Of a stretch of 64,000 bases of DNA, positions 5,463 through 59,284 are shown piece by piece. The notes below the pieces were generated by a model. It saw only the letters and a program-made list of their open reading frames with translations, did not search any database and was not told the DNA's origin. The DNA is from Mobula hypostoma (Eukaryota), in the NCBI RefSeq assembly GCF_963921235.1, contig NC_086108.1, positions 73,968,001 to 74,032,000 of the forward strand, written 5' to 3'. A program made the position numbers and the translations under genes. How positions within the stretch are numbered: the stretch's first letter is position 1; each line of letters opens with the position of its first letter.

Positions 5463-7990
5463 AAAATATGCTCAGGTTTAATTTAAAATCAATTTCAAAA
5501 GGAAACCAAAACACCTTCATCTGACATTTCTCGAAGCAAATATTTTCATTTACCAAAGCCAGCTAACTCAGATGACCCAAAAATAAAATTTGTTAGAGTA
5601 CTAAACAGCCTACAATACTGGCATTTATTTCAGATTATTCAAACTGATCTATCCCTCATTTTCAGTACACTAACAAATTTAAAGAGATGTCATATCTTTT
5701 ACATAAATGATTAACATAATGATAATAAATAAGAGAGAAACAATTAGGAACAAATGATTGGGAACCAACTGCACATTTGAGATTCTTCTGCTCTGGAGTT
5801 GTGGTTGCATCTCATAGGTACTGCTCAGAATCATTCCAGTTCAATGATTCCGTTTTGTGGGAGACTAATTTATGCACATCTGAACGTTGTAGATGGTGTA
5901 AAATCATTCAGATTCTAAGGATTTCTCCCTTACGGCATTTAGCAAGATAGCGACAAGTATCCTTTTGCTTCAGTCAATTAAGTTAACAACTGAACAATCA
6001 TTGAGCCTTAAAATGAAGAACTAGAGGAACAGCTGCTATGTTTAGTACACAATAAAAAAATACATCTAATACATCTCCAATGTCTAACTGCCTGCAAATC
6101 AATGAGAATCTTGCTCAACTGCAGAACATAAATTGAATAAACCACTTCTCAATCATCTCTATTGTGTTGTTTCTCACCCAACAATATGAAGTGCAATGCC
6201 CCAATTATCAAAGTAAAATATATAGATACTAATCTTTGTAAAAAAAAGGAATTCTAGATTTAGTTCAATCCAAAAGTAAACACTAAAGAATGAGGGGAAA
6301 AAAATAGAGCACTCCGTATTTCAGGTTGTAGATAATTTCAAATTGCAAAAATATTAATTAAGTTACAGATAATTTTGGTGGATAAACAAATACTTTAAAA
6401 AACTCAAAATAGCACAAGGTTGTGAACAGAAGGAAGCCAGGAAGAGAAATGTAGTTGGCAGATAAAGAAATTACTTTGTAGCCTTTAGATAATGGCTTTA
6501 GGCTTCCTGATATTTAGCTGGAGGAAATTTCTGCACATCTCATCTGGGATATGGACAAACAGCATACTAGATTATTGACAGATGGTGGGGTCAAAGGAAG
6601 CCTTGGCTGAGTTCAAGGAAAATTATAGAAGAGGCAAGCAGGAGCAAGGTTTTGTAGCTGGATTTGAAGGCAAAGTGCAAAACAAGCTGTTTTCTAGAAA
6701 TGCAATGTGATCCCCACCTCCCCTCCAAACCCAGCCATCCTAATGAGACAGTTGCCTGTACAAAAAAATCAGTTATGAAGCCTCAAGGAAAGAGATGGAG
6801 GGAAGAAATGGTGAGATGGGTTTGACGACAGCAGTTTTGTAAGTAAGGGATACTATACCCAACAAGAATTTATCTACAGTGTTAGATAAATTCCTAATTT
6901 ATCTAAGTCCTATGGACAGTATAAACCAATTACATTTCCAGGATATAACAGAACAGCCAGATATGTCAAGGTCAATTGTCAGAATCCATCAGGTGGGAAC
7001 AAGATAACAGAATTTTGGAAGTTGCACTTAGAAATATTCCTCCTCCTCCTCCTCTAGCCATAAGCAATTTAATTCTTCCTAGATATAAAAGGTCACAAAC
7101 TGTGAACCACTGATTTGTACAGGATTGCTTTCCCTGCCCTCTTTGAAAAATTCCATCTCATTGCGATTTCCATCTGATCATTGCCCCTGCTGTTGAAGTA
7201 CCAGACATATCACAGCTGAGTGATATCCAGTATGCTGAAGGCTTCAGGGATGGCACTGCCACCACTAAAATTGGTCAAAAATTAAAATGAACATGAGCAT
7301 TTTTATTTATATTAATCTCTTAATGTGCATGACACAACTATCCTCTTGGCAGACTACATAAAATTAGAGGTGAAATAATTTACCACACTGCCTAATTGTT
7401 CTTTGAATCTTAAATCTGTCAAGAGGAAGAATAATTCTAATTTTTACATTAATATTTGAGGTTCAGATCAATTCACTAGATTCATATTCTCCTTCAAACA
7501 CTGTCAAAAGCCTTCTGAAAGGTGGAATGTATTGCCCATGCATTGATGCCTTTTCAGGAAAAAAACAAGAAGCCACAAAGTATATCTGAAAATACTGAAA
7601 AGCTGTACTGTCCAGTGTAATCAAAAGAAATACCCAAGATATAAGGGCATATAGTCAGAAGAACAGTGGGAAAGTTAGCGATTAAAGATTTAACAGTGAA
7701 ATAGTCTCAATACATGAGCCAAAGACAAATTAACAGCATGGTTATGCACAATTTACAAAAACCAATCAAGAAACAGGAATTATTCACTAGTCAGGTATTT
7801 TGAACACTTCAAAATACATTCATGGACTCTTTCACAAAATCAAAAATTAAAATGTTATTTTTCACTGACAAAGTTCAAGATCAGAAGCATGAAGTCTAAA
7901 TATGCAGTCTTGTGGAAAAAAAGAGATGTCACCTCTGTGTCAAACAGCAATTCAGTAACGAGGTCAACCATACAAATCAATTTATGACGA

Positions 7991-8026
7991 AGTCCTGACG
8001 AAGGGTCTCGGCCTGAAACGTCGACT
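7991..8026 (+). ncRNA. Minimal type-I hammerhead ribozyme motif (copy 1)
   Basis: AGTC-CTGACGA-AGGGTCTCGGCCT-GAAA-CGTC^GACT. It has the core CUGANGA/GAAA/UH, stem I AGUC/GACU and a palindromic ACGU stem III. Confidence 0.8.
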
Positions 8027-8052
8027 GCACCTCTTCCTAGAGATGCTGCCTG

Positions 8053-8088
8053 AGTCCTGACGAAGGGTCTCAGCCTGAAACGTCGACT
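8053..8088 (+). ncRNA. Minimal type-I hammerhead ribozyme motif (copy 2)
   Basis: Same motif 62 nt downstream, with one substitution in the stem II loop region. Confidence 0.8.
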
Positions 8089-8914
8089 GCACCTCTTCCT
8101 AGAGATGCTGCCTGGCCTGCTGCGTTCACAGCAACTTTTATGTGTGTTGCTTAAATCAATTTATGATATAGTTTCTCCTCACATTTTTAGTTAATCTTAC
8201 CTTGAAGCATTTCAGATCCAGAAAAAGATTTTGAGAAACTTGATACATTAGCATGCACTCAGAAAAGATCTCTCTCTACTAAGAAAATAACAACAATGTT
8301 TCAGTATTCTTGGTGAACAACTCAGATACTGAAGTTAATCTCTTCAATCTCTCATCAGTTATTTTTACATGGCACACACAAGCATTTAAAATCAGCATAC
8401 ACATTTCTTTTCATTGGTACATCTAGCAAAGTTGACAGACTACAGTTATGGCCTTGTACCGTTGTCACAATCTTATCTGTGTGAATGTATAAACACAAAC
8501 AAATATATTACCTGACCAACCTGAAATAAATCCAAAAATAAATTCGATTATTTATGACTAAGAAACAGAAAAAGTCAGCCACAGCATACCAAAACTAATA
8601 TATCAGCAATGAACTAAGTTTATTTAGCAGTGTACTAAACAAAGCAAAGGACAAAAATGATCAAGAAATGAAAAAAGTTCACTTAGAGAATATATTAAAT
8701 ATTGAAGCATCACAGAGCGTTGATAGTTCTTGTAAGTAACTATACCCATGTTTTCTCCAAGGAGCTTATTTTCTACCCTTCATCCATTTTCAAGGCAGCT
8801 ATGAAAAGCCATTGCAGAATAGATTAGCAGACTACACATGAAATGGGCTGTAAAATTGGGAAAAGCATTGCCTGCTGATCCATATTAATTGTTTCCATTA
8901 GTTGGTAGACTCAG

Positions 8915-9600: not shown

Positions 9601-12600
9601 GAACTCCAAGGTATAACCAAGGTTAAGCACAACAAGCACATGGAAATGCTACCACTGCATTTTTCACTCCAAACTGATTGGAATATATTAGCATTCTTTC
9701 TTCGCTGCAGGATGCGTATTTTAGAGATCCCTACACAACAACATGAACATGTCATTACAAAGAACATTGGAGCTGAGGATGAACACAATCACCACTTCAA
9801 GGGAAATTGAAGAAAGACAAAAAAAAGTGCTCACATTGTGAATTTAGGAGTGGGAAATCTTCTTAATAACAGAAGATGAGTCATGTAGTGTCTGGATCTA
9901 TTTCTTTTAGAATCATCACTCTCCCCACGCCCACTCCCATTCAGCACCACGTATTGATCTGCTGTCTGCACAAGCCCATTGCTCTCTCTCTCACTGCAAT
10001 GTGAATACACCAGATAAAGCCATCTTTCACATACTTGCTTTTATTTAATTGATATATAGTTGTACACAGACACAACAAATTGGTGACAAGTACAAAGCTA
10101 AATGGCAGAAAATATCACGAACTGCACCAACAGTTACGAGTTGAAACAGTGAGAGTTAAACAGCATAAGAAAGCCATCACAGACACTAACAAAGGAACGC
10201 TCAAAGGTGCTTAATCTTAAGTGAGAATAATGAGAAGTCGGCTTCAGTCAGGAAAGTTGACGAATTTGTTGGTGCTAATGAAGGTTGGGAGTCATATATC
10301 GGGAACGTTGAACTGTATTGTAATGCGAACAATGTGGAGGAGCAAAAGAAAACACTGCACTTCTTAGCTTAATGGGCCGAAGAACGTACAGTCTCTTACG
10401 CAACTTAGTAAACCCTGCAAAACTAGCAGGCAAGATGTTTGCTGAAAATTGTTACAATTTTACCACATCATTTGAGCCCTAAATCGCTGGTAATAGCTGA
10501 AAGATTTAGATTTTACAAAAGGAATTAAAGGATAAAAGTATTTCTGAATACATAGCAGAATTGCGCAAACTTTCCCAGTACTGTGACTTCAGATGGACTT
10601 CCTGATGCATTCAGGGACAGGCTTGTATATGGCATGCATAGTCAAGGCACTCAAAAGAGGCTACGATCTGAAACAGACTCAACCTTAGAACAGGCAATGA
10701 CCATTGCAATATTGTTAGAGACTTCACCAAAGGATTCAGCAGAACTACAGAAAAGGAGGTTAGAACATTAAATACACAAAATGTCCCTGAATGATGCAAA
10801 AAGCCAAAGATGTTATTGATGTAGCAAATCCTCCCATGATACAAATGACTGTTGGTTCAAAGAAAAAGTCTGCAGAAAGTGCCATAGATAAGGTCACATG
10901 GAAAGAACGTGCAAAGCAGACAAAAGCATAACCAAGTGAGAAGGCTCAAACATAAAACTAAGATACCATGAGAGAAGACCTCAGTGAGGACTTACACAGG
11001 TAAAAAAGTGTATCCCAAAGGAAAACTGGAAGTAAATGTGACATATCAAGGCAAAACACAACAATTAGAGCTCAACATATTGAAAAGTGGAGGGCCAACA
11101 CTTTTCAGACATGAATGGTTGACAAAAATCCAACTAGACTGGCACTCAACCAAGGCTCTCAGCACAGCATCAACAGGCAACAGCAGCTCAAATAGTAGTA
11201 CTAACCAGAGACTGGCACTGCTGCTTAATGATAATGAGAAGGTGTTTGAGAAGGAGATCAGTAAATTCAAAGGCACGAAGGCCAGAATTGAACTGAATGA
11301 AGCGGCAACACCAAGATTCCACAAAGCACACCCGGTGCCTTAACACATTACTTCCTAATATGGATGCTGAACTGCAGAGCTTGGAAGCATCTGGAATTCT
11401 CTCCAAGGTTGAATGGAGCAATTGGGCTACACCCATCATCCCAGTAGTCAAGAAAAGGAAGGCCGGAGCTGTTCGCATATGTGGGGTGAGCATTTCAAGG
11501 TCAGCATCAACTCGGTGTTGCGTACTGTGCAGTATCCCCTGCCATGAATAGAAGGTATTTTTGCATCTTTGGCAGGTGGGGAGCACTTTTCAAAGATTGA
11601 CATAAGTCTACAGTATCTGCAAATGGAGATTGAGGAGTCAAGTAGGAAGTCCCTCACAATCAACACTCACAAGGTACTGTTCCAGTATAATCGTCTCATC
11701 TTCGGCATTGCATTATCTCCAGCAATTTGGCGAGGAGCAATGAACCAAGTGTTCCAAGTTACACTAGAAACACAATGTTACCTTGATGACATCATCATGA
11801 CCGGCAAAAATGATGAAGAGCACCTCCGGAACCTTGGTAAAGTGCTTACCAGACTGAGTGACACGGTCTGCATGCAGAGAGAAATGTGAGTTTTTCAAGA
11901 ATAAAACCTCATATTGTGGACATGTCATTTCAAGCAATGGCTTACATAAGTCACATGAGAAAACTGAAGCAGAGCTATACAGGCACCCAAACCAGAAAAT
12001 GCGCAACTCAAGTCATATTTGGGCCTTGTAAACTACTACCACTGGTTTCTCCCAAACATCTCTACTGTGCTGCACCCATTGAACGCACTGTTACAGATAG
12101 GAGCAAAGTGGGAATGGTTAGAAAGATGTGAAAAAACATTCAAGGGAAAAAAGAGACTTAATAACATCCGATGAACTGCTCACCCATCATGACCCATCCC
12201 TGTCCATCAGACTGGCGTGCAATGCGTCCCCTAATGGCATTGGAACTGTTTAGTCACACATTATGAAAGATGAATCTGAATGCCTGATTGCATTTGCTTC
12301 AGGGTCACTGACGAGGGCAGAATGCAACTACGCACAGATCAACCAGGAGGCCCTTAGTCTAGTATCACTACTTCTATGGACAGAAGTTTACGCTAGTGAG
12401 AGATCACCAGCCCCTTGTGTCTATTTTCAACCAGTTGCCAAGTGAAGCAGCAAGGAGCTTCGAGATTGGACAGGAAGTCCTAGGACAGGATTAGCGAGAA
12501 GACAGTGGACATGTAGTAGGATAGCTACAAGAACTGGACCACTGATGTACACAGTCAATGTTGGACATTAGACATGGAGACATCATGTGGACCAGATAAT

Positions 12601-12873
12601 GGGTATTCAACTGAAAAGCACATCCGAGTCGAATGCATCCAACAAGACGGACCTATTACAGTCACCGAACTTACCTCTCAGTGATGATCATATCACTGAC
12701 AGCAACATGACACCAGAAACCGAGAAAGTTGTCTTTGACAAGACACCTACCAAACCTGATGCCACTGCACAAGTCCAAAGGCACTATCCTGAAAGGAACA
12801 GAGCGCCACCTATAAAACTGAACCTTTACAACTGTGAAGTTCATTATGGATGGTTATTGTGAAAGTATGTTTA

Positions 12874-15550: not shown

Positions 15551-16839
15551 TTTAAATATACCATTTACCACATTAACATTACTTAAACACACATTGCACA
15601 GAATTTGTCATCTTCAATAGAATATTTCAAAACTTCATTACTTTCAACAAGCTAGGATGGTGATAGGAAAAAGAGTAATCTGATCTGTCAAGCTCTCTCA
15701 TTAATTATTTTTAATGGGATCTGTCCATCCTATTGACAATACTTATCAATGCTGGAGTTCATTGACAAGATTTTCCTTGCATCTCCCACAAGTGAAACCA
15801 TAACTGATCATAAATCAATCTCACATATAAATCAGATGTATGGCTAGTATGCAACAATATATGAATGTCATTTTAAGGATATTTCTCCTTAGTTTCACAA
15901 ATAAGAATTCCTCTTGGTACCTTTCCCCTTCAATATAGCAAATAAATTTCTCAGTTATGAAAGCACTATAAATAAGGAATGTTCTCATTTTTGTTATGTT
16001 ACTGATTTGGCCTGCTTCTATTCCCTACCCCCAGGCTCAATATACATTTCCTGAGATTGGCCTGCAAACATACTTCTATTGCTGTTGAGCCACCTGCTAG
16101 CAAGTGCCCAGGGAATGTACTATGATTTATGCTGCCTTTCTTTGCACTGTACTGCACAGTGGACTCCCCTTGTGCAAGCTTCTGCAGGCATCCCAGAGTT
16201 CATGTTTGGAAATATCTGCCCATGGAGCCTGCACTGTTCAACCTAATCTAAATAGAGGAATCTCACTGAAATTAATGTGAGAAAGACTGCCAAAAAGAAA
16301 AGGCAAACTAACCATTTCACATCATTCAGTTTAGTTTATAACAGTTTAAGCGCTTTTTTAAGCATTTTGAATTGTTCCAGTTTTTTTTGCATTTTTCATT
16401 GATTCAGGGCATTTTGAATGTTTGATAGTCAAAAGCATTCACAAATGGAGCAACAAAACTGGCTACAAAAGCCAATCTCTGAATATTGTTGGCTATTTAG
16501 GATAAAGTGATCCTGAGCTGCACTATACTGCATAAAGCCATAGACCAATGTAAGGAAGCAGACTTCGCAGCTGAACACTATGCCAGGTATCATAATTGAA
16601 ATAAAAATATAGTCACCAACAAAGAAAATTAATTTTACATAAAAGTAATTCCCTGCTGGCAAAATGTTATACACTGTTTCATTAATCAGGTGGTGGAAAA
16701 TACAATAAATATACTGAATACAACAGACTGATCTTTTCTTCGAGTTACATTCATAAAATAAAACTATTTGAAATTATTTTAACAAGTTATTGTGAAGTTA
16801 AGGATTCATAAGCTCCAAAAACTTAAAATAAATCTTTTA

Positions 16840-16980
16840 AAAACGCAAACAACAGGAATTCTGCAGATGCTGGAAATTCAAGCAACACACATAAAAGTTG
16901 CTGGTGGACACAGCAGGCCAGGCAGCATCTCTAGGAAGAGGTGCAGTCGACGTTTCAGGCCGAGACCCTTCGTCAGGACT
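16840..16980 (-). mobile_element. Penelope solo pseudo-LTR insertion
   Basis: Almost identical to 59180-59320; 11-bp TSD TAAATCTTTTA (16829-16839, 16981-16991). Confidence 0.9.
16945..16980 (-). ncRNA. Minimal type-I hammerhead ribozyme motif, intact
   Basis: Reverse complement reads AGTCCTGACGAAGGGTCTCGGCCTGAAACGTCGACT. Confidence 0.8.
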
Positions 16981-30308: not shown

Positions 30309-33300
30309 TGTGGCAACCCACTTTCTACACAGATGAACCGGCTCACAAAATGGCGCGCATGTCGGCAGAGAGGCCAGCCCCAAAAAGGCGCTGGGCCGCC
30401 TTCTTCACCAGCAAGGGGAGAAACCTGCGCGCAGGAAGAGACTTTTGTAATGCACCTCTGATGTCATTTCTGCCCGGAGAGGGCGAGAACGGAACTGTGT
30501 AAAAGCCAGTGCCGCGAATTTTAAATAAACTAGTCTCGAGTACAACTTACAGACTGCGTGTTGTTATTTCTAGCTCTGTGTGTAGCACATCGCTACATTG
30601 GTGACCCCAATGGTCTAAACGGGATTTGGACCAAAGATGATTGACTCCATCTGTTCACACAGTTTCGCTAAAACTGCCAACTTTCTGGACGCTGTGACCA
30701 CACGTGTGGTTTGACCAAGCAGAAGCCCAGTTCCAGATTCGGCAGATATCTTCTGATTCCACGCGATACTATTATGTGGTGAGCTCCCTTGACCAGGAGA
30801 CAGCTGCCCAGGTTGAGGATTTCATACAGTCACCCCCGGAAGAAGGCAAATATGCAGCATTCAAAGCGCTGCTCATAGGGACCTCTGGCCTCTCACGGCG
30901 TAAGCAAGGTGCCTGCTTGCTGTACCTGGACAGTTTGGGAGACAGGCCACCATCAGCATTAATGAACGAGATGCTGGCCCTGGCTGAAGGACACAAGTCC
31001 TGCCTCATGTTTGAGCAGGCATTCCCAGAGCAACTGCCTGAGGACATACATCTGCTGCTGGCCGACACAGATTTCAGCAACCCCCGGAACGTGGCGACCC
31101 GGGCAGACCTTCTGTGGAAAGCCAAGAGAGAGAGCGGGACATCCGTCGGACAGATTACCAAGCCACGCACCCAACAGCAGGCCAGACCAGGCCTGGCAAC
31201 GGAGCGCACAGAACCCAGAAGCAGGAGTGAGGAGGACAATGAACAGTGGTGTTTCTACCACCAGCGATGGGGCACAGAAGCTCACCGTTGTCGCCCGCCC
31301 TGCAAGTTCCCGGAAAGTGCAAGGGCCAGCCACCGCTAATGGCTACAGCGGTTGGCCACCAGGACAGCCTCTTGTACATCTGGGACAAATAGTCGGTACG
31401 CCTCTTCTTGGTCGACACCGGAGCGGAAATCAGTGTCTTACCCCCGACGGGGTACGATACCCGCAACAGGGAGCCGGGACCCACTCTGAGGGCCGCAAAC
31501 GGCAGCACAATATGGACCTATGGCACCCCCACAGTGCAGCTGCAGTTCGGCGCCAGCCGCTTCACATGGGACTTCACACTGGCTGCCGTGGCCCAACCAC
31601 TCCTGAGGGTGGGCTTCTTGCGAGCTCACAGCCTGCTGGTCGACTTGCAAGGGAAAAGACTGGTCCATGCCAAGACTTTCCAGACATTCTCCCTGGATGA
31701 AGCCAAGTTGCCGGCCCCACACCTGGACTCCATCACGCTGTCTGACAACGAATTCACCAGAATCCTGGTGTACTTTCCATCAGTTCTGGCATTGCAGTTC
31801 ATGGCAGCCATGCCCAGACACGGAGTACAGCACTACATTCCGACCCAGGGACCAACCCTCCACACCTGTGCACGAAGGCTCCTCCAAGACAAGCTCCGCC
31901 TGGCGAAGGAGGAATTCAAGAGGATGGAGGAATTAGGGATTGTACGACGGTCCGACAGCCTGTGGCCTCCCCCCTGCACATGGTACCCAAAGCAGCTGGG
32001 GGCTGGAGACCATGCGGCAACTACCGCAGACTGAACGAGGCTACAACTTCAGACCGCTACCCCGTGCCGCACACACAGGACTTTGCAGCAAACCTGCACG
32101 GGCAAGCATCTTTTCCAAAGTAGACCTGGTCCGGGAATACCATCAAATCCCGGTACACCCTGAAGACATCCCCAAGACAGCACTCATCACCCCGTTTGGC
32201 CTGTTCAAATTGCTCCGAATGCTGCTTGGCCTGAAGAATGCCACACAGACGTGTGGATGCAGTAGGATGCAACCTGGACTTTGCGTTCATCTATTTGGAC
32301 GACATCCTCATAGCCAGCAGTAGTCATCAGGAGCATCTGTCCCACCTCCTCCAGCTCTACTCCCGCCTGAGTGATTTCGGCCTCACAATCAACCCGGCCA
32401 AATGCTAGTTCGGACTCGACACCGTCGACTTCCTGGGCCACAGGATTACCAAAAGACGGGGTAACATCTCTGCCCGTCAAGGTAGACACGATTCGCCACT
32501 TCGCCCGGCCCAACACAGTCAAAGGCCTGCAGGAGTTCGTTGGTATGGTGAACTTCTACCACCACTTCCTCTCCTCAGCAGCCCATATCATGCGCCCTTT
32601 ATTCACCCTGATGTCGGATAAAGGCAAGGGCATTACTTGGGACAAAGAGGCCACGGCCGCTTTCATTAAAGCTACGGAAGCCTTGGTAGACGCCGCGATG
32701 CTGGTGCACCCCAGAATGGACGTTTTAACTGCCCTCACAGTGGACGCATCCAACACAGCAGTCGGTGGGGTGCTGGAGCAACTCATCGAGGGGTGTTCCT
32801 ATGGCCACCCGAACTCAAGTACAGTGCCTTCCACTGGGAGCTGTTGGCACTATATCTGGCAATCCAGCATTTCAGGTACTTCTTAGAAGGCATGCCGTTC
32901 ACTGTGTTCACGGACCAGAAACCGTTGACCTTCGTGTTCACGAAGGTGTCTGATCTCTGGTCGGCCTGAGAGCAGCGACATCTGTCCTATATCTCCGAGT
33001 ACACGACAGACATCCAGCATATCTACGAGTCTGTGGTGGCCAGTGCTATCATGCTTGCTGTTGTGTGCTGGGGCAGCAGACACCAACAGAATCAACAAAT
33101 TCATTCGTGAGGCCAGTGATGTTGTGGAGATGGAACTGCACTCTCTCACGGTGGTGTCTGAAAAGAGGACGCTGTCTAAGTTGCATGCCATCTTGGTCAA
33201 TGTCTCCCATCCACTACATAATGTACTGGGTGGGCACAGGAGTACATTCAGCCAGAGACTCATTCCACCGAGATGCAACACAGAATGTCATAGGAAGTCA

Positions 33301-35140
33301 TTCCTGCCTGTGGCCATCAAACTTCACAACTCCTCCCTTGGAGGGTCAAACTTCCTGAGCCAATAGGCTGGTCCTGGACTCATTTCATAATTTACTGGCA
33401 TAATTTACATATTAATATTTAACTATTATGGTTGTATTACTATTTATTATTTATGGTGCAACTGTAACGAAAACCAATTTCCCTCGGGATCAATAAAGTA
33501 TGACTATGACTATCTCGGGAAAGGACAACGTCGTAGCGGACTCACTCTCCAGACCAGCTATCCAGGCCCTATCCCAGGGGGTGGACTATGCAGCACTGGC
33601 GGAGGCACAGGAGGCAGACGACGAGATGCCCAGCTACAGGACCACAGACTCGGGTTTGCAGCTGCAAGACTTCCTCGTAGGCCCAGGTGAAAAGACCTTC
33701 CCGTGTGACGTGGCTACCAGCCAACCTCGCCCCATCGTCCCGGCAGCCTGGCGGTGGCTAGTTTTCGACTCCATACACGGCTTGACGCACCCATCTGTCA
33801 GGACAACCATCCAGATGGTCTCCAGCAAGTTCGTGTGGCACAGACTTCACAAACAGGTCAGCGAATGGGCCAAAACGTGCACGCAATGCCAAACAGCCAA
33901 GGTGCAGCGGCACACCAAAGCCCCGCCGCAGTTCAAACCCACCCGCCGGAGGTTCGACCACATTCATGTGGATATCGTGGGGCCCCTGCCAGTGTCGCGA
34001 GGAGCGCAGTACCTCCTAACTATGTTAGACCAGTTCACGAGATGGCCAGAGGCGGTCCCGTTTACCAACACCACCGCCGATTCCTGCGCCCGAGCGCTGA
34101 TTGCAACCTGGGTAGCACGCTTCGGGATACCGGCCCACATTACCTCTAACAGAGGCGCCCAGTTCACCTCCAGCCTGTGGTCGGCTATGGCCAGCCTGTT
34201 GGGAACACAGCTATACCACAGAACTGCCTACCACCCACAGTCCAACGGACTAGTGGAACGCTTCCACCGTCACTTCAAGTCGGCCCTCATGGCCCTCCTG
34301 AAAGGGCCTAACTGGGTGGACGAGCTTCCCTGGGTCTTGCTTGGAATCCACACAGCACCCAAGGAGGATCTGCACACCTCATCGGCTGAGCTGGTGTACA
34401 GCACACCACTGGCCGTCCCAGGAGAGTTCATACCAGCCCCAAGGGGGCAAGAGGAAGAACCCGCAGCAGTCCTGGACAGACTACGCTAAAGACTCAGCAA
34501 ACTGGCCCCCGTACTAACTTCACAGCACGGACAGATCCCGACCTGCATACCCAAAGACCTGCAGAACTGTAAGTTTGTATTTGTACGAAGGGGCGCACGC
34601 CGGGCACCGCTACAGCGGCCGTACAAGGGGCCGTTCAAGGTGATCAGGAACAACGGGTCCACGTACGTTCTGGACATTGGGAGGAAAGAGGAGGCTTTCA
34701 CGGTGGACCAACTCAAACCGGCCCATGTGGACTTGGCACAGCCAGTCGAGGTTCAGGCACCATGGCGCAGAGGCAGACCGCCCAAACAGAGACTGATCCA
34801 GACTGTGGACATTGAGAGGTGTATTGCCAATTCTTGGGGGGGGGGGTTTATGTGGCGAACCGCTTTCTACGCAGGCGAACCGGCTCACAAAATGGCACGC
34901 ACGTCAGCAGAGAGGCCAGCCCCAAAATGGTGCTGGGCCTTCTTCTTCACCAGCAAGGGGAGAAAAACCACACACAGGAAGAGACTTTTGTAATGCACCT
35001 CTGACATCATTTCCGCCCGGAGAGGGCAGGAATGGAACTGCATAAAAGCCAATGCCGCGAAGTTTGAATAAACTAGTCTCGAGTGCAACTTACAGACTGC
35101 GTGTCGTTATTTCTAGCTCTGTGCGTAGCACATCCCTACA
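30309..35140 (+). mobile_element. Full-structure Ty3/Gypsy LTR retrotransposon, CsRn1-like (disrupted)
   Basis: LTRs at 30309-30597 and 34851-35140, TSD CTGT, PBS TGGTGACCCC (tRNA-Trp) at 30599 and a G-rich PPT. Gag 30704-31339 has a CHCC motif (CFYHQRW...CRPPC). Protease LVDTGA, RT, RNase H and integrase 33500-34489 (HHCC, D-N-E core with the second Asp read as N) follow. Confidence 0.95.
33025..33510 (+). mobile_element. Rex/Babar-type LINE 3' fragment inserted in Gypsy RNase H
   Basis: ORF 33043-33366 (SHPLHNVL...RKSFLPVAIKLHN), AATAAA and a TATGAC-repeat tail. TSD TATCT (33020-33024, 33511-33515) splits Gypsy IQHI/SGKDN. Confidence 0.85.
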
Positions 35141-35929
35141 CTGTCAATATTTCAGATTGAAATCCTGCATCAGAACAACTCGAAGACTTTCAGCGAGATA
35201 GTACTGATTTTCATCAGGGGTGCCAAACAGAACTGCTAATGTTTGACATTGAAACAGACACAAGTCTACAAGTTAATGATAGTTTCAGAGTCAAATCTGT
35301 CAGCTTGCCCTATGCTGCATCTCCATTAATTTAATTGAAGAACATTAAACAAAGACTCAGAAAGTACATAATTAAGAGAATATAACCAAAGTGAAATATT
35401 TTCAGTCAATAATATTTTTCTCTCTATGTTACTTTAATGTTCATGGGTCTTATAATCTCTTTGACCAAGACACATTTACCAAATATTAAAATCAATAGTA
35501 ACTCAGAGACTGGCAAAGTCCTACTGTACTGTTACACCAAGACACTCAAGGCCCAGTCCCCCATTCACATGATACTGCTTGAGTCTGGAGGTGCAAAGGT
35601 TCAGCAGAATAGGCCCTTTGATCCAGTTCAATTAAGAGCAGCTATTGTGGGTCTAAAGTGACAATTTTGGGTAGGGGGAAAATAAGGCAAACACAATCAA
35701 TGTAAATTGTACAAGAGTTGTCCAGAAAATCTGACAGTGTCGATGGGGAGAGGAAAAAAAATGGTGTTTAGATTGCTAACTTACAGAAGTGGCTAGTTCT
35801 CATGCAAAGAAAATGAGCAAACTAAAACTGCTAACTTTGGAACACAGAGGATTTTACTGTAGCTCTGACCTGCATTTCACAATTTTTGGGTTCCCTTGGC
35901 TGTGGTTCTCTCCTTAAACTATCAATGAG

Positions 35930-36094
35930 GTAGCATCTATAGGAGGAGGTACAGTCAACGATTCGGGCCGAGACCCTATGTCAACTGTACCTCGTCCTAT
36001 AGATGCAGCTTGGCCTGCTGCATTCACTAGTATTTTTTTATGTGTGTTGCTTGATTTTCCAGCATCTGCAGATTTCCTCATGTTTGCGTTTTTA
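35930..36094. mobile_element. Palindromic Penelope pLTR insertion (older subfamily)
   Basis: Inverted arms join within the hammerhead motif (~35955-35985); possible TSD AATGAG. Confidence 0.7.
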
Positions 36095-36155
36095 AATGAG
36101 ACAACCTGATCGTTTTATCAACAGCTCATCACCAAAGCCTCTCCCTATCAAAGAT

Positions 36156-44000: not shown

Positions 44001-45191
44001 CATCACAAAGAGATTTATCAGTCCTCATTTTTGTTTTTAAATACAGAGCAATAATTTTTCAGTGTAGAAACGCTGATGATAAACTGGAAATGTGAAAAAT
44101 CTTGAACAGGTCAGACAAAAGAAACAGGAAAAAATACCTCCTGCACCAAGGGCTCAGGTTTTGAGAATATATCATAAGCAAAGCGAAACAAATAGAGGAT
44201 GAAGGAAATGAGAAACATTCACACAAGCTAGACATACAGTCTCCAAGCAAATAAGGAATCTGAATAGCAAACAACTTACAATCATCTGCCATTTAATTTT
44301 TCTTTTAAGTAGAATCAATATTTTCCTGTTACAAGGCAACTTTACCAATTTTCAGAAGTCTCTAAATTAGAATGCATTCCAATTTTCTGAGTGTATGCAA
44401 CAATTGAACCATTTCACCTCCGTGACTTAAGTTTTACAGCCAAAGCTAGTTTAGGAATCACAACTTAAGCAGGTTTATTCCATTAAATATGGATCAGAAT
44501 TTAGGTCATGTTTGGCAGAAAAGATCTTTTAAATCTTGAGCTCTGGACAAATGCTCTGTTAATTGTTAAATTATTACAACATTAACCTGCGCAGCATCTA
44601 GCCACAAAATGATATAAGGTATACACTAGACCTTTAAGGAAATTAATTTAACACACCTCTCTCAGAAAGGCAGCGTCCATTATTAAGAACCCCCAGCACC
44701 CAGTGCATGCCCTTTTCTCACTGTTACCTTCAGGTAGGAGGTACAGAAGCCTGAAGGCACACACTCAGCGATTCAGAAACAGCTTTTTCCCTTCGGCCAT
44801 CCGTTTCCTAAATGGACATTGAACCCGTGAACACCATCTCACTTTTTTTAATATACAATTATTTTAGTTTTTTGCACATAAGAAATAGGAGCAGAGTAGA
44901 ATTTCTCTTCAGATCAAGAAGACAGCGGTAAGAGGCTAAGGATTTCCAGCGAGAAGACATTTTATTTCTCGGAGTAGGAGAGAGGCCAGACTGCGCAGGC
45001 CCATGACGTCAGACAGTTGAGCGCGAACAATTTGAAAAGGAAACCGCCATATCCAGCAGGCAGCGTCAGAGCGGGCTGCGGAGTGAGAAGGTGCAGAGTG
45101 AAAGGGCTTTGGCTCAACGGGCTTCGGCGGAGACGGGAAGAGGCTTCCTGCGACCATTGAGTCTCATAGTAATGGAGTAAGTTACAGTTTT

Positions 45192-46082
45192 TTGGTATTT
45201 AGTACAAACAGTAGCACTAGAGGTATGCATCTAGGATTAGTGTTGTGCTTGGAGTGCCAGATGTGGGGACCCTGGGAGACTCCCAGCCTCCCCAAGAATT
45301 ACATCTGCACCAGGTGTACTGAGATGAGGCTCCTGAAGGACCGTGTTAAGGAGTTGGAGATGGAAATTGATGACCTTTGGCTAATTTGGGAAAGTGAGGA
45401 GATGATAGATACTACCTATAGAGAGGTAGTGGATAGCACCCCTGTGACAGTCCCCCTCAGAAATCGATATATCGTTTTGGATACTGTTGAAGAGGCAGAC
45501 CCGACAGAGGAGGACCACAGTGAACGAGACTCTGGCATTCTGCCCAGTGCCGAAATCAAGAGAGCAAGAAGAAACGCGGTAGTTATAGGGGATTCCATCA
45601 TAAGGGGGACGGACAAGAGATTCTGCGAGACGGACAAGGATACCCGGATGATGTGTTGCCTCCCTGGTGCCAAAGTACGGGATGTCTCAGATCGAGTCCA
45701 AAGTATTCTGAGGAGAGAGGGCGAGCAGCCGGAAGTCTTGGTACATGTTGGTACCAATGACATAGACAGAAAAAGAGAGGAGGTCCTGAAGAAAGTTTAC
45801 TGGGAGCTAGGAAGAAAATTGAAACGCCGGACCTCCAGAGTAATAATATCAGGATTGCTGCCTGAGCTGCACGCTAATGATGGTAAGAATAGCAGAATTA
45901 AGCAGATGAATGTGTGGCTAAGTAATTGGTGCAGGTGTCAGGGCTTCAAATTCTTGAATCATTGGGATCTATTTTGGGGAAGGTATAACTTATACAAAAA
46001 AGATGGATTACGCCTGAACTCAAAAGGTACTAATATCCTGGAGGGATTGTTTAATATAGCTGTTAGGGAGGGTTTAAACTAA
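45192..46082 (+). CDS. CR1 ORF1p: zinc-finger (CxxC...CxxC), coiled coil and SGNH esterase domain
   Basis: Open 296-aa frame with CLEC..CTRC, VVIGDSII, VHVGTND and DGLRLN. The likely ATG is at 45225 (MHLGLV). Confidence 0.85.
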   Translation: MVFSTNSSTRGMHLGLVLCLECQMWGPWETPSLPKNYICTRCTEMRLLKDRVKELEMEIDDLWLIWESEEMIDTTYREVVDSTPVTVPLRNRYIVLDTVEEADPTEEDHSERDSGILPSAEIKRARRNAVVIGDSIIRGTDKRFCETDKDTRMMCCLPGAKVRDVSDRVQSILRREGEQPEVLVHVGTNDIDRKREEVLKKVYWELGRKLKRRTSRVIISGLLPELHANDGKNSRIKQMNVWLSNWCRCQGFKFLNHWDLFWGRYNLYKKDGLRLNSKGTNILEGLFNIAVREGLN

Positions 46083-46183
46083 GTTGGCAAGGGGAAGGAA
46101 ACCAAGGTGTTAAGGTCGAGGAACAGGAAAATAGAAATAAGTCAAAAATACTGTGCAGCAAAGATGGCAAGAAGGACAGGCCG

Positions 46184-49038
46184 GTGAATATACAGGATAA
46201 TTTGCTGCAAAATAGAAACATAACAAAATCAGCAACAAATACTGATCTAAATGTACTGTACTTAAATGCATGCAGCATCAGAAATAAAGTGGATGACCTT
46301 ACTGCACAGCTACAGGTTAAAAGATATGACATTGTGGCCATCACCGAGTCATGGCTAAATGATGGATGTCATTGGGAGCTGAATATCCAAGGATACACAG
46401 TGTATAGGAAAGATAGGAAGGTAGGTAAAGGGGGTGGCGTGGCCCTGATGGTAAGTAACGATATCAAATCAATAGAAAGAAGGGACATAGGATCAGAAGA
46501 GGTAGAATCCTTATGGGTAGAATTAAGAAATGGCAAGGGTAAAAAGACACTAACAGCAGTTATATACAGACCTCCAACAGCAGCCAGGATGTGGACTACA
46601 AGTTGCAGCTGGAAATAGAAAAAGGGTGTCAGAAGGAAAATGTCAAGATAATTATGGGGGATTTTAATATGAAAGTGGATTGGGAAAGTCAGGAAGGTAA
46701 TGGATCTCAGGAGAGGGAGTTTGTAGAATGCCTACAGGATGGCTTTTTGGAGCAGCTTGTCCAGAAGCCCACCAGGGGACCGGCTGTTTTGGATTGGATG
46801 CTGTGTACCAAACCTGAGGCGATTGGGGAGCTGGAGGTAAAGGAACCCCTCGGAAGTAGTGATCATAATATGATTGAGTTCAGTTTCAAATTTGAAAAGG
46901 CGAAGCTGGTATCAGGTATATCGATATTTCAGTGGAACAGGGGAAATTACAGTGGTATGAGAGAGGAACTAGCCCCAAGTCGATTGGAAAAGTAAGCTAA
47001 ATGGAGGGACAGCAGAGCAGAATTGGATGAAATTCCTACAAGAAATAAAGAAAATGCAGGAAAAATATATTCCAAGAAGAAAGAAAATCATGAATGGAAA
47101 AATGGCACAAATGTGGCTAACAAGAGAGGTTAAGGCAAAAATAAAAGCAAAAGAAACGGCGTACAAGGAAGCAAAAATTAGTGGGAAAAATGAGGACTGG
47201 AAGACTTTTAAAAACTTACAGAAGGAAACTAAGAAAGTCATTAGGAAAGAAAAGATGAATTATGAAAGGAAGTTGGCGATTAACATAAAAAAGGATACTA
47301 AGAGTTTTTTTAAATATATGAAGAGTAAAAGAGTGACAAGGGTAGATACGAGACCGATTGAAAACGATGCTAGAGAAATTATAATGGATAATAAAGAGAT
47401 GGCGGAGGAACTGAATGAGTATTTTGCATCAGTCTTCACAGTGGAAGACATGAGCAATATACCTGATAGCCAGAGGTATCAGAGGATAGAATTAGGTACA
47501 GTCAAGATTACTAGAGAGAAAGTGCTTGGGAAGCTAAGTGGACTAAGAATAGATAAGTCTCCCGGTCCAGATGAGGTGCACCCAAGGGTTCTAAAGGAGG
47601 TGACTTTGGAGATTGTGGAAGCATTGGAAATGATCTTCCAGGAATCAATAGACTCTGGCATGGTTCCGGAGGACTGGAAGGTCGCAAATGTAGTTCCGCT
47701 ATTTAAGAAAGGAAGGAGGTAGCAAAAAGAAAATTACAGACCTATTAGTCTGACATCGGTAGTTGGAAAGATATTGGAGTCAATCCTCAAGGACGAGGTT
47801 ATGAAATACCACGAGGTTTATGACAAGATAGGCCGAAGCCAGCATGGTTTCATGAAGGGAAAATCCTGCCTCACCAACCTATTAGAATTTTTTGAGGTAA
47901 TCTCGAATAAGATTGACAAGGGAGAGGATGTGGATGTTGTGTATTTGGATTTTCAAAAGGCCTTTGATAAGGTGCCGCATATGAGGCTGCTTAATAAGAT
48001 GAGAGCCCATGGAATTATAGGAAAGATATTGAAATGGGTAGAGCATTGGCTGATAGGCAGAAAGCAAAGGGTGGGAATAAAGGGATCCTATTCTGATTGG
48101 TTGCCGGTTACTAGTGGTGTTCCGCAGGGGTCGGTGTTGGGGCCGCTTCTTTTTACGATGTATATCGATGATTTGGATTATGGATTAAATGGTTTTGTGG
48201 CTAAATTTGCGGATGACACCAAGATAGGTGGAGGAGCAGGAAATGTTGAAGAAACGGAAAGGTTGCAGAGAGACTTAGTTAGTTTAGGAGAGTGGGCAAA
48301 GAAGTGGCAGATGAGATACAACGTTGACAAATGTACTGTTGTACATTTCGGAAGAAGAAATAATCAGGCAGATTATTATTTAGATGGGAAGAAAATTCAA
48401 AAATCAGAAGTGCAAAGAGACTTGGGGGTCCTCGTGCAGGATACCCTAAAGATTACCCACCAAGTTGGATCGGCGGTAAGGAAAGCAAATGCTACGTTGG
48501 CATTCATTTCAAGAGGAATAGCGTATAAGAGTAAGGAGGTGTTGATGAGGCTCTATGGGGCATTAGTGAGACCTCATTTGGAATACTGTGTGCAGTTTTG
48601 GGCCCCCTATCTTAGAAAGGATGAACTGATGTTGGAGAGAGTTCAGAGAAGATTTACAAGGATGATTCCTGGAATGCAGGGGCTAACATATGAGGAGCGT
48701 TTGCCGGCTCTAGGATTGTATTCATTATAGAAGAATGAGAGGGGATCTCATAGAAACGTTTCGAATGTTCAAAGGGTTGGGCAGAGTAGATGTGGAAAGG
48801 TTGTTTCCCTTGGTGGGTGAGTCCAGGACAAGAAGCCATAGTCTTAGAATTAGAGGGTACCCAGTTAAAACAGATGAGGGGAAATTTTTTTAGCCAGAGG
48901 GTCGTGGATTTGTGGAATTCGTTGCCACATACAGCTGTGGAGGCCCGATCATTGAGGGTGTTTAAGGAGGAGATTGACAGGTATCTAATTCGTCAGAGTA
49001 TCAAGGGATATGGGGAAAAAGCCGGAAATTGGAACTAG
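46184..49038 (+). pseudogene. CR1 ORF2 (APE endonuclease + RT), frameshifted
   Basis: Consecutive ORF pieces 46184-46618, 46591-46995, 47027-47722 (TAG) and 47774-48730, then the C-terminus in other frames. Confidence 0.9.
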
Positions 49039-49786: not shown

Positions 49787-52700
49787 TTGTGCCGGCAGTT
49801 TCGCCAATCGCTGCCAGTTTTTGTTTATTGCATCTTTGTTTTACCTTTACCATCTAGTATTGGAGAGTGAAGAACTTACCAAAGTACAGGAACCCGAAGG
49901 ATTGACTAAAGTTGGTGTCGCTCGGCGGTTTTATAAAGGATCTACCTTATTGAATCTTCGTTCAGGAATAGTGGACTGCATCTGAGATAACCCCTGCAAG
50001 ATCAGGAAGGTTTGTGCAGTGTTCACTCTCCAGGGAAAGGTCAGTTCCTTTAAGCCGTTATTTCCTTCATCCTAAATCCTTTGGACAAGGTATGTCTCGG
50101 CTGGGATCAGCAGTAACGTCACCCCAGTACCAGAGGGCATGCTTTAAGAATAAGGGGTAGGTTATTTAGGACAGAGTTGAGGAGGAACTTCTTCTCCCAG
50201 AGAGTTGTGGAGGTGTGGAATGCACTGCCTCAGAAGGCAGTGGAGGCCAATTCTCTGGATACTTTCAAGAAGGAGCTAGATAGGTATCTTATGGATAGGG
50301 GAATCAAGGGTTATGGGGACAAGGCAGGAACCGGGTATTGATAGTAGATGATCAGCCATGATCTCAGAATGGCGGTGCAGGCTCGAAGGGCCGAATGGTC
50401 TACTTCTGCACCTATTGCCTATTGTCTTCGAAAAAATCAGTTTTCAGGGAAGTCTCTCCTTACTGACTGTATAAATCACTTGGACTTTCGAATTTACCAC
50501 TTTAAGACTGTGTTCGAATTTACCACTTGAAGAACTGTTCCAGAGTTCGGCTGTTAAATTGCCATATAGCAGTTAACTTCCGGTTAAAGTAGTCATTTGT
50601 TTACTTTTCACTATTATTGAGCAGAGTTTAATAAATGTTTACATTTGTTTATAAAACCTGAATAAATTCTATATTCATTGTTGCCGACCACGTAACAGAA
50701 ATTGGGGGCTCGTCTGGGATTTGTTCCAATTTTGAGTTTAAGTGCTTGTTTAATTATCAATCTGATTTGGAAAAGGGAAATACCCGATTCTTTTGTTTGA
50801 TTGGTCTGTGGGTGGTATTTGGCAGCAATGACTATTGACAAATTTCTGGCATCACCAGACCCGGAGGTATTAGCAAAGGCGAAAAAGGGTGATGTATCCA
50901 AGACTGCTACAAGGTTGGACCTTAAAGGGATATCGAAGGTTACAACAAAGCCAGTAATTCAGAGGAAAATAGCAGATCACTATATAAACTCGGGAGATTT
51001 TGATGAAGATGTGTTAGATATGTTTCCAATGAGTAAACTGAAGATGCAGTTACATATCGAACAAATAAAGTTAGAGCAATTTAAACTGGCGGTGGCGGCT
51101 AGAGAAGCAGATAAACAGAGGGAACTTGAGCTAGCAATGGAGAAATTAAAGTCTGAGAATAAGGCGTCTGGTTCTAGGAAACGGTTTGCTGTTAATCAGG
51201 AAATTAAATTAGTTCCTCCATTTAAATGAGGCAGATGTAGATAAATATTTCCAGCATTTTGAAACTATTGCTCTGATTTCACAGTGGCCGAAAGATAAAT
51301 AGCCAGTGCTGTTACAAAGTGTAATTAAAGGTAAGGCACAACAGGTTTATACAGCTTTAACTGCTGAGCAAGCACTTGATTATGATATTGTGAAGCAGCA
51401 TATATTGAAAGCATATGAACTGGTTCCGGAAGCTTATAGAGAAAGATTCAGAAATTTGAAGAAATCCGTGGACAAAACTTACGTGGAATTTGCCTACGAT
51501 AAATCTGTGTGTTTTGAGCAATGGGTTTCCTTTAAAAAATGTGAATGGGCAGTATGATAACTTAAAAGAGTTGATTTTAATGGAGGAGTTTAAAAGGTGC
51601 GACCCTGTTGACGTAAGGACATACTTAAATGAGAGGGACACTGCTACATTGCAGGAGTCTGCTAAATTACCAGATGAGTATGCCTTAATCCACAAGAGTA
51701 AATTTCCTCCGGGTAGAACTTTTAAAGGGAAAAATAGCACAGAGAGTCAAGGTAAACCAGAAATTAAATCAGAAGTTAGTGAGAAAGGTAAGGATGAAGG
51801 GGAAACATGTGAAGGGAAGTCATTTTGGTCCTATTTGTAATTATTGTAAGAAACCTGGTCATGTAGCAGCTAACTGTTTCCAACTGAAGAAGAAGGGGAA
51901 GGAGGCAGTCCCAGATGCCTGTGTGCAACATATTGAAAAACCTGTAAATCCACAGGGTTCGATAAATTTGAATGAAGCTTTGTCAAAGTCTGACCAAGTT
52001 AAGAGGGAATGTGATCATTTTATAACCGAAGGATTTGTATCCTTGAAAGAGGGGTCCACTCCAGTGACAATAAAAACTCTTAGGGATACTGGAGCTTCTC
52101 AGTCACTTATGTTAGACAGTGCTCTAAAGTTTAATGATGAGTCTGACACTGTTGAGGTAAACTATATACGAGATGTTGGGAGTGCCCTTATGCCTGTATA
52201 TTTGCATAGAGTAAATTAAGGTCAAGGTTAGTTACAGGACCTGTTAAAGTAGTACTACAACCCAGTTTACCCATGAATGATGTTTCTCTATTGTTAGGGA
52301 ATGACTTAGCAGATGGACAAGTTTTTCCTGAAGTCCATTTGACGATTAAGCCCATCTCTGATGAACCAAAGATGATTTCTAACATGGATTCCCCCTGTGT
52401 TGTAACCTGAGCTATGGGCAAAAAGATTGCTGAGGTGAATGGGCCTGTGCAGGATGAGGCTGCTACCCATAACCGCTCAACTCGGGATTCGAATTTTTAG
52501 GATGTGTCAGAAACTTTCTTACCTTCATTGTTTGATCAAGATTCTTGTAGTAAGCCTGACCATGAAGATTTGCCTCTGTCTCGGAAGGAGATGATAACAG
52601 AGCAGAGACAGAAGGAGATGATAACAGAGCAGAGACCCTGAGATAGTCAAGTTAAAGGAACAAACTCTCCCAGATAGTGAAATTGAGAAGGTGCCAATAG

Positions 52701-55440
52701 GATATTATTTTTAGAAGGGAGTATTAATGAGGAAGTGGAGATCACCTACAATTTCTGCAAGTGAGGAATGAGAGGTTGTTCACCAGGTAGTAGTTCCTAA
52801 AGTTTATCGGAATGAGATTTTAATTTTGGCTCATAGTATGCCCTTGAGTGGCCATCAAGGTGTGAAGAAAACGGCGAACCAGATTTTTAAACATTTTTAC
52901 TGGCCTGGTTTAAGAAAAGATGTGGCGACATTTTGCCAAACAGGTCATACTTGTCAGATTGTGGGTAAACCTAATCAAGTTACTCCAGTGGCCCCACTGC
53001 AACCTATTCCTGCAATTGTTGAACCATTTTCCAAAATTATTGTAGATTGTGTAGGCTCATTGGCAAAAGCTAAAACTGGCCATCAATATTTGCTGACCAT
53101 CATGTGTACTGCATCTAGGTTTCCAGAGGCAATACCTCTTAGGAATATAAAAGCCAAAACTGTGACAAGGGTTCTCATAAAGCTCTTTACTTTATTTGGG
53201 TTGCCTGAGGAAATACAATCTGATCAAGGTAGTAATTTTATGTCTGGATTTTTTCAGCAGATAGTTTATAAACTGCGAGCCAAACAGATTACATCATCTG
53301 CATATCATCCCGAATCACAAGGGGCCTTAGAGGGGTTCCATTCTACCCTCAAAACAATGATTAAGACATTTTGTATGGAAAATGAAAAGGATTGGGATGA
53401 GAGCGCTCATTTACTTTTATTTTCAGTCAGAGGGTCAGTGCAGGAATCTTTAGGTTTTAGTCCTTTTGAACTTGTGTTTGGGCATAGAGTTAGAGGACCT
53501 TTGGCATTGTTAAAAGAATAGTGGATTAATAAATAGGTACATACTAATTTATTGGATTATGTTTTCAAGTTTAAGGAAAGATTGCATAAAGCTTGTAGCT
53601 CAGCCAGGGAAAATTTAAAATTGGCTCAGGAGAAAATGAAAACTTGGTATGACAAGGAAGCTAGACTGAGGTCATTTAAGCCTGAAGTGTTGGTTCTTTT
53701 CCTGGTGCAAACAAACCCTTTACAAGCCAAATTTCATGGTCCTTATGAGATTATACCTAAAGTTAATGATGCGAATTATGTGATAAAAACACCAGATCGA
53801 AGAAGGCCAACACAGCTTTGTCATATAAATATGATAAAGCCATTTTATGAAAAACAGTCTACTACTATGACTGTTGTGGTCAATAATAGTGAGTCTGATC
53901 CCACTGGGAACTTAATGGATGATTCATCTGAGTCTTATTTTAAACCAAACATTATTTCTGCCAGATTACCAAACTCAACAATTCTGGAAAGCATTGATGA
54001 GAAATTAGCTCATTGACAGCTAGAGCAGAGGCAGCAGATGAAGCAGTTAATTTTTAAATATAGGGATTTATTTCCAGATGTTCCTAAAAGAACCACAGTA
54101 GCTTCACATAATGTAGATGTTGGAGATTCCAAACCCATAAAGCAACATCCATATGGGATGAACATGAAGAAATGTGCACTTGCTGAACAAGAAATTAAGT
54201 GTATGCTAGAGAATAATATTATTAGACCTTCTAATTCGAATTGGAGTTCACCTTATGTTATGGTGCCTAAGCCAGACGATAGTATTCAGTGTTGTACTGA
54301 TTACAGGAAGGTGAATGCTGTAACAAAAAACTGATGTATATCCAATCCCTAAGGTAGATGATTGCGTGGATAAAGTTGGAAAAGCAAAGTTCCTTACAAA
54401 GATTGATTTGTTAATGGTGTGTTCCATTGACGGATAGAGGTAGAGAGATTTCTGCATTTGTAACACCTTCTAGGTTAGATGAATATAATGTTCTACTATT
54501 TGGAATGAAGAATGCACCAGGTACTTTCCAGTGGATGATTAATTCTGTGATTCATGGGTTAAAAGATACAGATGCCTATATTGATGATTAGTTACAGGAA
54601 ATGATTCCTGGGAAGCACATATTGCTGTGGTGGAGAAACTATTTGAAAGGCTTTCAAAAGCTAACTTAACTATTAACTTAGCTAAAAGTGAATTTGATCA
54701 TGCCACTGTGACCTACCTTGGTTATGTTATGGGTCAAGGTAAGTTCGCTCTTGTTCAAGCAAAAGTTCAGGCAATATTAGAGGTACCCACTCCAACTGGT
54801 AAAAAGACTCTCAGAAGATTCTTGGGAATGGTAGGATATTACCGAAAAATTTGTAAGTATTTTGCTGACATTGCCCTTCCATTAACTAATCTCTTGAAGA
54901 AAAGTGAAAAGTTTGTTTGGACAGAGCCTTGTCAGGAGGCATTTGATAAATTGAAAACTATGCTATGTCACAAACCTGTGCTCAAATCACCTGACTTTGA
55001 AAAACCATTTTCATTAGCTGTAGATGCTAGTGATGAGGCTACAGGAGCAGTGTTACTTCAAAGGGATGAGGGTGATGAGGTTGATCATCCAGTAGCTTAC
55101 TTTTCTAAGAAATTTAATGGGTTTCAAAGAAAGTATTCAACTATAGAAAAGGAATTATTATCCCTTGTTTTGGCTTTACATTTTAATGTGTATGTGGGTA
55201 CAACTCAGAAAGCACTCGTAGTTTACACCAATCATAATCCGTTAGTGTTTTTGAGTAAGATGAAAAACAAAAATAGAAGGTTACTGAACTGGAGTTTGAT
55301 GTTACAGGAGAATAATACTTTGATAACTCATTAAAGGCAAAGATAATGTGATTGCACCCTGTCTATCTAGATGTTGAATGTACAATGTAATTTTTTTTAT
55401 GGAGTGGTATTTTAACATTTGTAACACTCCTACTGTACAT
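49787..55440 (+). mobile_element. Gmr1-like Ty3/Gypsy retrotransposon (gag-PR-IN-RT-RH order), degenerate, 3' LTR missing
   Basis: The LTR ends ...GTAACA at 50697. PBS TGGGGGCTCGTCTGGGAT (tRNA-Pro) at 50703-50720. Gag has a SCAN-like region and CNYCKKPGHVAANC; protease LRDTGA. Integrase 52826-53521 and a GPY/F region come before RT (54038-~54900) and RNase H (AVDASD, YSTIEKE). Confidence 0.92.
50127..50428 (+). mobile_element. CR1 3' fragment inserted in the Gmr1-like LTR
   Basis: Translates TRGHALRIRGRLFRTELRRNFFSQRVVEVWNALP; CCTATTG tail repeats. Confidence 0.85.
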
Positions 55441-55777
55441 TAGGTTAGCTGCTGAGTCCTTGAATACTAACCAGTCCACCGATTCAAAGCAGCTGAAGGT
55501 TTCCTCAATTCCCACTGCATCCAATTTTATATCAATTTCCTTACATCATTACTCCTGAACTAAGACTAACATTAAACAATCAACAACCAGTGGATTGTTT
55601 AAGGTAGTACATCAAATCCACATGATTGGAACCAAATGGAAAATAAAATCACTCAAATATGGCTTTGAGGAGACGTGCTAAAATTGTCATCAACAGTAGT
55701 CACTCTTACCTCAAGCAACACACATAAAAGTTGCTGGTGAACGCAGCAGGCCAGGCAGCATCGCTAGGAAGAGGTGC

Positions 55778-55813
55778 AGTCGACATTTCAGGCCGAGACT
55801 CTTCGTCAGGACT
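55778..55813 (-). ncRNA. Hammerhead motif in 3' pLTR (two substitutions)
   Basis: Reverse complement reads AGTCCTGACGAAGAGTCTCGGCCTGAAATGTCGACT. Confidence 0.65.
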
Positions 55814-56108
55814 AACTGAAGGAAGAGTGAGTAAGGGATTTGAAAGTTGGAGGGGGAGGGGGAGATCCAAAATGATAGGAGAAGACAGGAGGGGGAGGGA
55901 TGGAGCCAAGAGCTGGACAGGTGATAGGCAAAAGGGATACGAGAGGATCATGGGACAGGAGGTCCGGGAAGAAAGACGGGGGGGGGACGGGACCCAGAGG
56001 ATGGGCAAGAGGTATATTCAGAGGGACAGAGGGAGAAAAGGGAAAGTGAGAGAAAGAATGTGTGTATAAAAATCAGTAACAGATGGAGTACGAGGGGGAG
56101 GTGGGGCA

Positions 56109-59100: not shown

Positions 59101-59148
59101 ACTAAACTCCCGTCGAAGAAAGGATCTAAACTTCTTCGGTGTAGGCAT
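56109..59148 (-). pseudogene. Penelope RT-endonuclease ORF with one in-frame TGA and one homopolymer frameshift
   Basis: ORF 58147-59151 is in frame with ORF 56536-57468 across the TGA at 58147-58149. The reading switches to the frame ending at 56109 at the G-run ~56607-56616. Confidence 0.88.
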
Positions 59149-59284
59149 CACTGGAAGAGGCTTCGCAGTAGTGAATTTAAAAACGCAAACAACAGGAATT
59201 CTGCAGATGCTGGAAATTCAAGCAACACACATCAAAGTTGCTGGTGAACGCAGCGGGCCAGGCAGCATCTCTAGGAAGAGGTGC

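Follow-up and report, generated by a model that had tools for sequence, protein, structure and literature searches.

The question raised by this locus is how two complete hammerhead motifs came to lie head to tail within one small insertion in the genome of Mobula hypostoma, and whether the pair could act as a ribozyme. In the window (the whole 64,000-nucleotide stretch analysed, by whose positions all features are given here), the 165 bases at 7988–8152 are enclosed by a single 14-bp target-site duplication, the copies of which, recognised by sequence comparison, lie at 7974–7987 and 8153–8166, occur nowhere else in the window and would be expected by chance at about 1e-6, allowing 30 offsets. 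With element position +1 set at the 5′ base of stem I, the insert runs from the target through 3 filler bases (7988–7990, plus strand) into +1 to +62, then again from +1 to +101, and back into the target. Unit 1 (+1 to +62; 7991–8052) and unit 2 (+1 to +62; 8053–8114), both on the plus strand, differ at a single site (G at 8010, A at 8072), the latter being a CpG-type change in the stem II loop, and the linear continuation of the pLTR (+63 to +101; 8115–8152, plus strand) has one base missing near 8128. Tandem Repeats Finder (62-nt period, 2.0 copies, 98% at 7991–8114) and our reading of the motifs agree on two complete head-to-tail hammerheads with a 62-nt period, as the preliminary description had proposed, and its placing of both within one 14-bp duplication likewise holds.

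Each unit carries a minimal type I hammerhead motif (plus strand; motif 1 at 7991–8026 with a predicted cut between 8022 and 8023, motif 2 at 8053–8088 with a predicted cut between 8084 and 8085), consisting of a 4-bp stem I, the core CUGACGA, an extra A, a short stem II of 3–4 bp, GAAAC and GUC, with ACGU palindromes at 8018–8021 and 8080–8083. Core and positions were read against the hammerhead consensus and its numbering, by which C17 falls at 8022 and 8084, the two cytosines after which cleavage had been predicted at first inspection. The description of hammerheads by Cervera and de la Pena 2014 (PMC4209133) agrees with this consensus and numbering. The features of the minimal hammerhead (min-HHR), namely an intact core, stem I, stem II and a palindromic 15.2–16.2, are present in both units. 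As in the min-HHR reported there from the pLTRs of metazoan Penelope-like elements (PLEs), stem I has 4–5 bp, an extra base lies between 9 and 10.1, loop III is absent beside the palindromic 15.2–16.2, and the motif occurs in both pLTRs of an element with RT and GIY-YIG domains as well as in abundant truncated copies with single motifs. In contrast to the Schistosoma families of that account, in which stem II has 7–8 bp and G-C closure, the ray stem II has 3–4 bp and closes with G-U or A-U, and the ray insertion holds two motifs, 62 nt apart (PMC4209133). A literature search combining hammerhead ribozyme and Penelope with stingray or elasmobranch found no published case.

The main departure from the minimal motif concerns stem II. 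The G10.1-C11.1 pair, which is highly conserved in min-HHR and lies outside the search descriptor of that study (PMC4209133), is missing here, the parent element and the two units alike having G-U or A-U in its place, and a G-U closing pair of stem II is not among the variants tested in the available part of PMC544870. Within the window, G-C closure is found in older copies (37154, 63645, 35983), while the young subfamily has G-U or A-U; judging from these pairs at 8014, at 8076 and in the parent copies, an expanding young subfamily may carry a weakened ribozyme. Rfam gave no match in the window at the gathering threshold and two unrelated matches near the locus, attributed to chance, when E was allowed to reach 10, a silence on the motif that is expected because it lacks stem III.

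By sequence comparison, the insert is a 5′-truncated pLTR of a very abundant PLE. A near-full but broken parent lies at 55713–59357 on the minus strand, with two pLTRs bearing the same motif, an RT, a CX4CxxC linker, a GIY-YIG-like endonuclease and its own 14-bp target duplication; its frame is disrupted by one stop and one frameshift. Unit 1 is identical to the parent's 5′ pLTR at 62/62 positions, unit 2 with its tail is 95% identical to either parent pLTR, and the insert ends at +101, exactly where the parent itself ends, so that with 95–100% identity to both parent pLTRs, a fixed 3′ end and a 14-bp target duplication the insert has the marks of a PLE pLTR. Other copies of the family end at about +136 to +146, and the two usual start sites are +101 and about +143. 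The parent's RT match (E 1.6e-4) is below Pfam's cut-off, and its endonuclease matches at 38% a protein with a passing GIY-YIG match, its own match being weak (E 0.06–0.18); its best relatives, at 70–89% identity, are from sharks and rays. The parent resembles the Neptune/Nematis-type PLEs of Craig et al. 2021 (PMC8557442) in its C-terminal GIY-YIG with internal CxxC, its CX4CxxC linker and its pLTRs, a clade placement made by motif alone, and its family resembles them in an optional tail of about 40 bp and in inverted truncated partners (PMC8557442). A 9-base inverted piece of the parent's tail was also observed at the parent's 5′ end.

The family is well represented around the locus. At E below 1e-10, the window holds 14 fragments of the same pLTR sequence, both units counted, 4 of which have an intact motif, and 50,096 contigs of run X1 align to a 751-base stretch, nearly all of them on the element, a figure that is not a copy number. 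The preliminary description had passed over both these fragments and the parent. A sibling mini-insertion at 16836–16980 (minus strand) starts at +1 and has a longer tail and a single intact motif. Starts at +1 are found at 7991, 8053, 16980 (minus strand), 63629 (minus strand) and possibly 63645, and thus in 4–5 of the 14 fragments and 3–4 insertions. In the fold model the motif also forms an inactive rod (about −10 kcal/mol) that begins at +1 and might set an RNA end or an enzyme stop; the fold of the whole element was not better than that of shuffles (z −1.42). Two inverted pLTR pairs (62363–62570 and 35928–36097) have the same layout, with a 4-nt inverted repeat of the motif at the joint, one arm running from the long tail to +28 to +33 and the other from +6 or +7 onward. 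Priming of a cDNA from each target strand would yield such pairs; they were also considered as traces of cleavage, given the arm starting at +28 to +33, a reading set aside since the 4-nt inverted repeat accounts for the junction equally well.

The frames scanned gave no sign of the MAST host gene named in the preliminary description. The 42 minus-strand frames near the locus yielded none with a kinase, PDZ or MAST-type family (5 weak unrelated matches, E 0.03–0.09), and a further 142 minus-strand frames elsewhere, out of 374 frames listed, yielded none either (1 weak unrelated match). A strict splice-site scan returned 13 candidates, none of them recognisable. Each unit contains a pyrimidine run that ends in a splice-acceptor-like AG (8026–8041 and 8088–8103, plus strand), and the splice scan proposed a candidate exon at 8041–8139; back-splicing was considered by eye as a source of the inner junction and rejected for want of a fitting donor or acceptor. 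Elsewhere in the window, three LTR-retrotransposon-like remnants with protease, RT and integrase-like frames (30698–34993, 51689–55334 and 10190–12859) and a long CR1-like LINE (45102–48730, from translations) were recognised by eye. A 22-nt core pattern was found in no stretch of the metagenome contigs searched, and a 16-nt pattern found in 9 viral contigs was judged to be chance, the similarity stopping at 15–21 nt.

We consider it probable that the first 62 pLTR bases were doubled within a single insertion, when reverse transcription reached a recurrent 5′ stop, ran off and began again inside the element. The element's reverse transcriptase would have been primed at +101, copied down to +1 and begun afresh at +62, using either the same or a second RNA and needing no homology. 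After reaching +1 once more, it would have restarted for a last time, over a few bases, at about +11 to +13. The cDNA end would then have annealed to the target, with 3 nt of microhomology joining the very short templated restart. On this account the double hammerhead would be a by-product of insertion, probably transcribed little and cleaving weakly or not at all.

The parentage of the insert, the 3′ end in common with the parent, the single target duplication and the start of both units at +1 are direct observations, as is the lack of homology (0 nt in either direction) at the inner junction. At the left junction, 7985–7992 (the filler and its neighbours) forms an 8-nt match to +6 to +13 of the element, with a rough chance of 0.001–0.09, and this match suggests the second restart. 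Independently of this locus, the PLE reverse transcriptase initiates internally without primer homology in vitro (PMC11167929), and PLE insertions typically show partial tandems (PMC8557442). In run X5, which bears the label of a second species, one joint returns to +1 from another place (8126 to 7991, with one base between), a joint that is forced to land at or inside 7991 because the query stretch lacks the parent's upstream sequence. Restart within the insertion is a model built on one locus, and +62, against it, is not a usual start site, with one other window fragment ending near it (+61). Enzymes of the R1/R2 type jump end to end between templates. For these enzymes, the available part of PMC2718515 describes microhomology and non-templated bases and no internal restarts.

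A less probable but serious alternative is that a single 100-nt pLTR scrap landed first and only afterwards had its 5′ 62 bases doubled, by ordinary DNA repair or slippage. Vertebrate genomes commonly contain short tandem duplications formed without homology, and the position of +62 outside the usual start sites also favours this account. Furthermore, Li et al. 2026 (10.64898/2026.07.22.740005) propose that retrozymes originate in local tandem amplification of a landed pLTR. However, a random 62-nt duplication that retains both motifs has 27–35 possible starts, so that landing on +1, exactly the family's recurrent 5′ edge, would be about a 1-in-30 event, and the homology that slippage would use is absent. 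The two units also have no derived change in common, which is weak evidence against later duplication, there being little power at about 1% divergence. A restart during insertion is therefore the reading that we prefer for the tandem.

The activity of the pair is a separate matter, and it seems unlikely that the two motifs act as an intramolecular double hammerhead in a plus-strand transcript, releasing a 62-nt RNA (8023–8084) that a host ligase could close into a circle. Both cores are intact, which is true of only 4 of the 14 window fragments, but youth alone predicts as much. The double-hammerhead geometry proposed at first inspection can indeed be drawn with all stems of the intramolecular form paired, the 26-nt linker being its own hairpin, and a fold of −11.8 kcal/mol is predicted for the 62-nt circle; dimers of minimal hammerheads do cut, if weakly (PMC4209133), and the tandem type I hammerheads of coral, mussel and axolotl yield circles (PMC7229834). 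In contrast, truncation has cost stem I one of its 5 pairs, leaving 4, the pair closing stem II is G-U or A-U and not G10.1-C11.1, and the two GUCGAC palindromes (6 bp) are predicted by the fold model to pair with each other at a probability of 0.8–1.0, burying both cut sites. The active form lies 18–22 kcal/mol above the free ensemble in this uncalibrated model, but this counts for little, since under the same model the parental motif, acting in trans, pays about 19 kcal/mol; the penalty thus appears not to be specific to the tandem, and part of it may come from the model itself. Among natural Xenopus dimers, 1 of 9 cleaved in vitro (10.64898/2026.07.22.740005), and the hammerhead motif of Anolis requires the element's protein (PMC11167929). 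More doubtful still is the birth of a retrozyme in one step, in which run-off and restart would have built an active pair whose 62-nt RNA circularises. If this were true, the product would be among the smallest natural ribozyme-made circles, and restarts in so large a family would give rise to many micro-retrozymes with different periods.

Tandem hammerheads of this type are already known, as the preliminary description had maintained (PMC7229834; 10.64898/2026.07.22.740005). Like the PLE-derived non-LTR retrozyme dimers of Li, Clavereau and Pollet (10.64898/2026.07.22.740005), the ray pair is a pLTR-derived tandem of two units with a complete type I motif in each. Dimer units in that account span 51–972 bp, and the only cartilaginous fish sampled there has them; the ray unit, at 62 nt, is near the short end of the range, and the ray pair comprises exactly two units, set in a linear stretch of pLTR that has a single target duplication (10.64898/2026.07.22.740005). 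The locus falls under their operational definition of a dimer (at least 2 consecutive units, each with a complete type I motif folding below −5 kcal/mol), having two such units and a motif fold of −10.0 kcal/mol, as obtained with Tandem Repeats Finder settings slightly unlike theirs and with the motif read from the sequence in place of their rnabob descriptor. Coral, mussel and axolotl have non-LTR retrozymes with the same head-to-tail type I arrangement (Cervera and de la Pena 2020, PMC7229834), and in axolotl cleavage depends on the dimer. However, the retrozymes that produce circles have canonical hammerheads, monomers of about 220–350 nt (circles of at least 150 nt), long arrays and abundant RNA, whereas the ray locus has a minimal motif, a 62-nt unit and two units, and is known from DNA alone (PMC7229834). 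It therefore has neither the canonical hammerhead nor the monomer of at least 150 nt that marks a circle-producing retrozyme.

The locus itself is real and young. Unique contigs of run X1, which may share its source with this DNA, enter the insert from both flanks without difference (7700–8013 and 8132–8450), and those of run X5 do so with 3 differences (7700–8018) and with 6 differences and a 3-base gap (8129–8450); as the insertion is present in both runs, it is older than the split between these species. At 8019–8020 and 8123–8128 the last 2 and 6 letters of the X5 contigs disagree with the window, and these may reflect a change in organism B beside the first palindrome and a 1-base loss near 8128 private to organism A. 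In run X9 the left contig ends at 7987, at low depth and with no joint across the site, so that no empty site was seen, and in run X10, presumed to be RNA, contigs cover the element and neither flank, which has no bearing on expression. It is most improbable that the second unit is an assembly artefact. Among the longest contigs listed, none bridges the inner junction 8052/8053 with 31 letters on each side, so that the number of units rests on the assembly, and the unique X1 contigs stop at 8013 and resume at 8132. In a family as dense as this one, a contig crossing a unique junction would nevertheless probably be shorter than the pieces listed, and such a blank is to be expected; moreover, a CpG-type difference separates the two units, and the outer junctions are both confirmed without difference in X1 and are present in X5 too.

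Least credible is that the tandem arose by rolling-circle reverse transcription of a 62-nt circular RNA, for although more-than-unit copying from circles has been proposed for PLEs and retrozymes (PMC4209133, PMC7229834), filler and target precede unit 1 and the parent's linear sequence follows unit 2, so that the sequence leaves the circle at both ends and is not a copy of it, and the circle itself presupposes the junction, on which copying would have had to end exactly. Nor are the repeat edges cleavage ends, because the cut site lies at +32/+33 and the edges at the foot of stem I, 32 nt away. The earlier suggestion that reverse transcription or template jumping produced the duplication is thus retained in part: template jumping at insertion is favoured by the +1 starts and the lack of homology, while copying from a released or circular 62-nt template is not.

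The locus is ordinary in kind, PLE-derived hammerhead dimers like it having been catalogued across vertebrates in 2026, and its modest value is that of a clean young example whose parent lies in the same window. Besides arising by later satellite-like amplification, such dimers may, as this case suggests, form at insertion via restart from a recurrent 5′ edge. The locus also provides a natural substrate for asking whether the minimal hammerheads of rays cut in cis, and if a circle were released, errors of PLE insertion would be tied directly to the origin of retrozymes.
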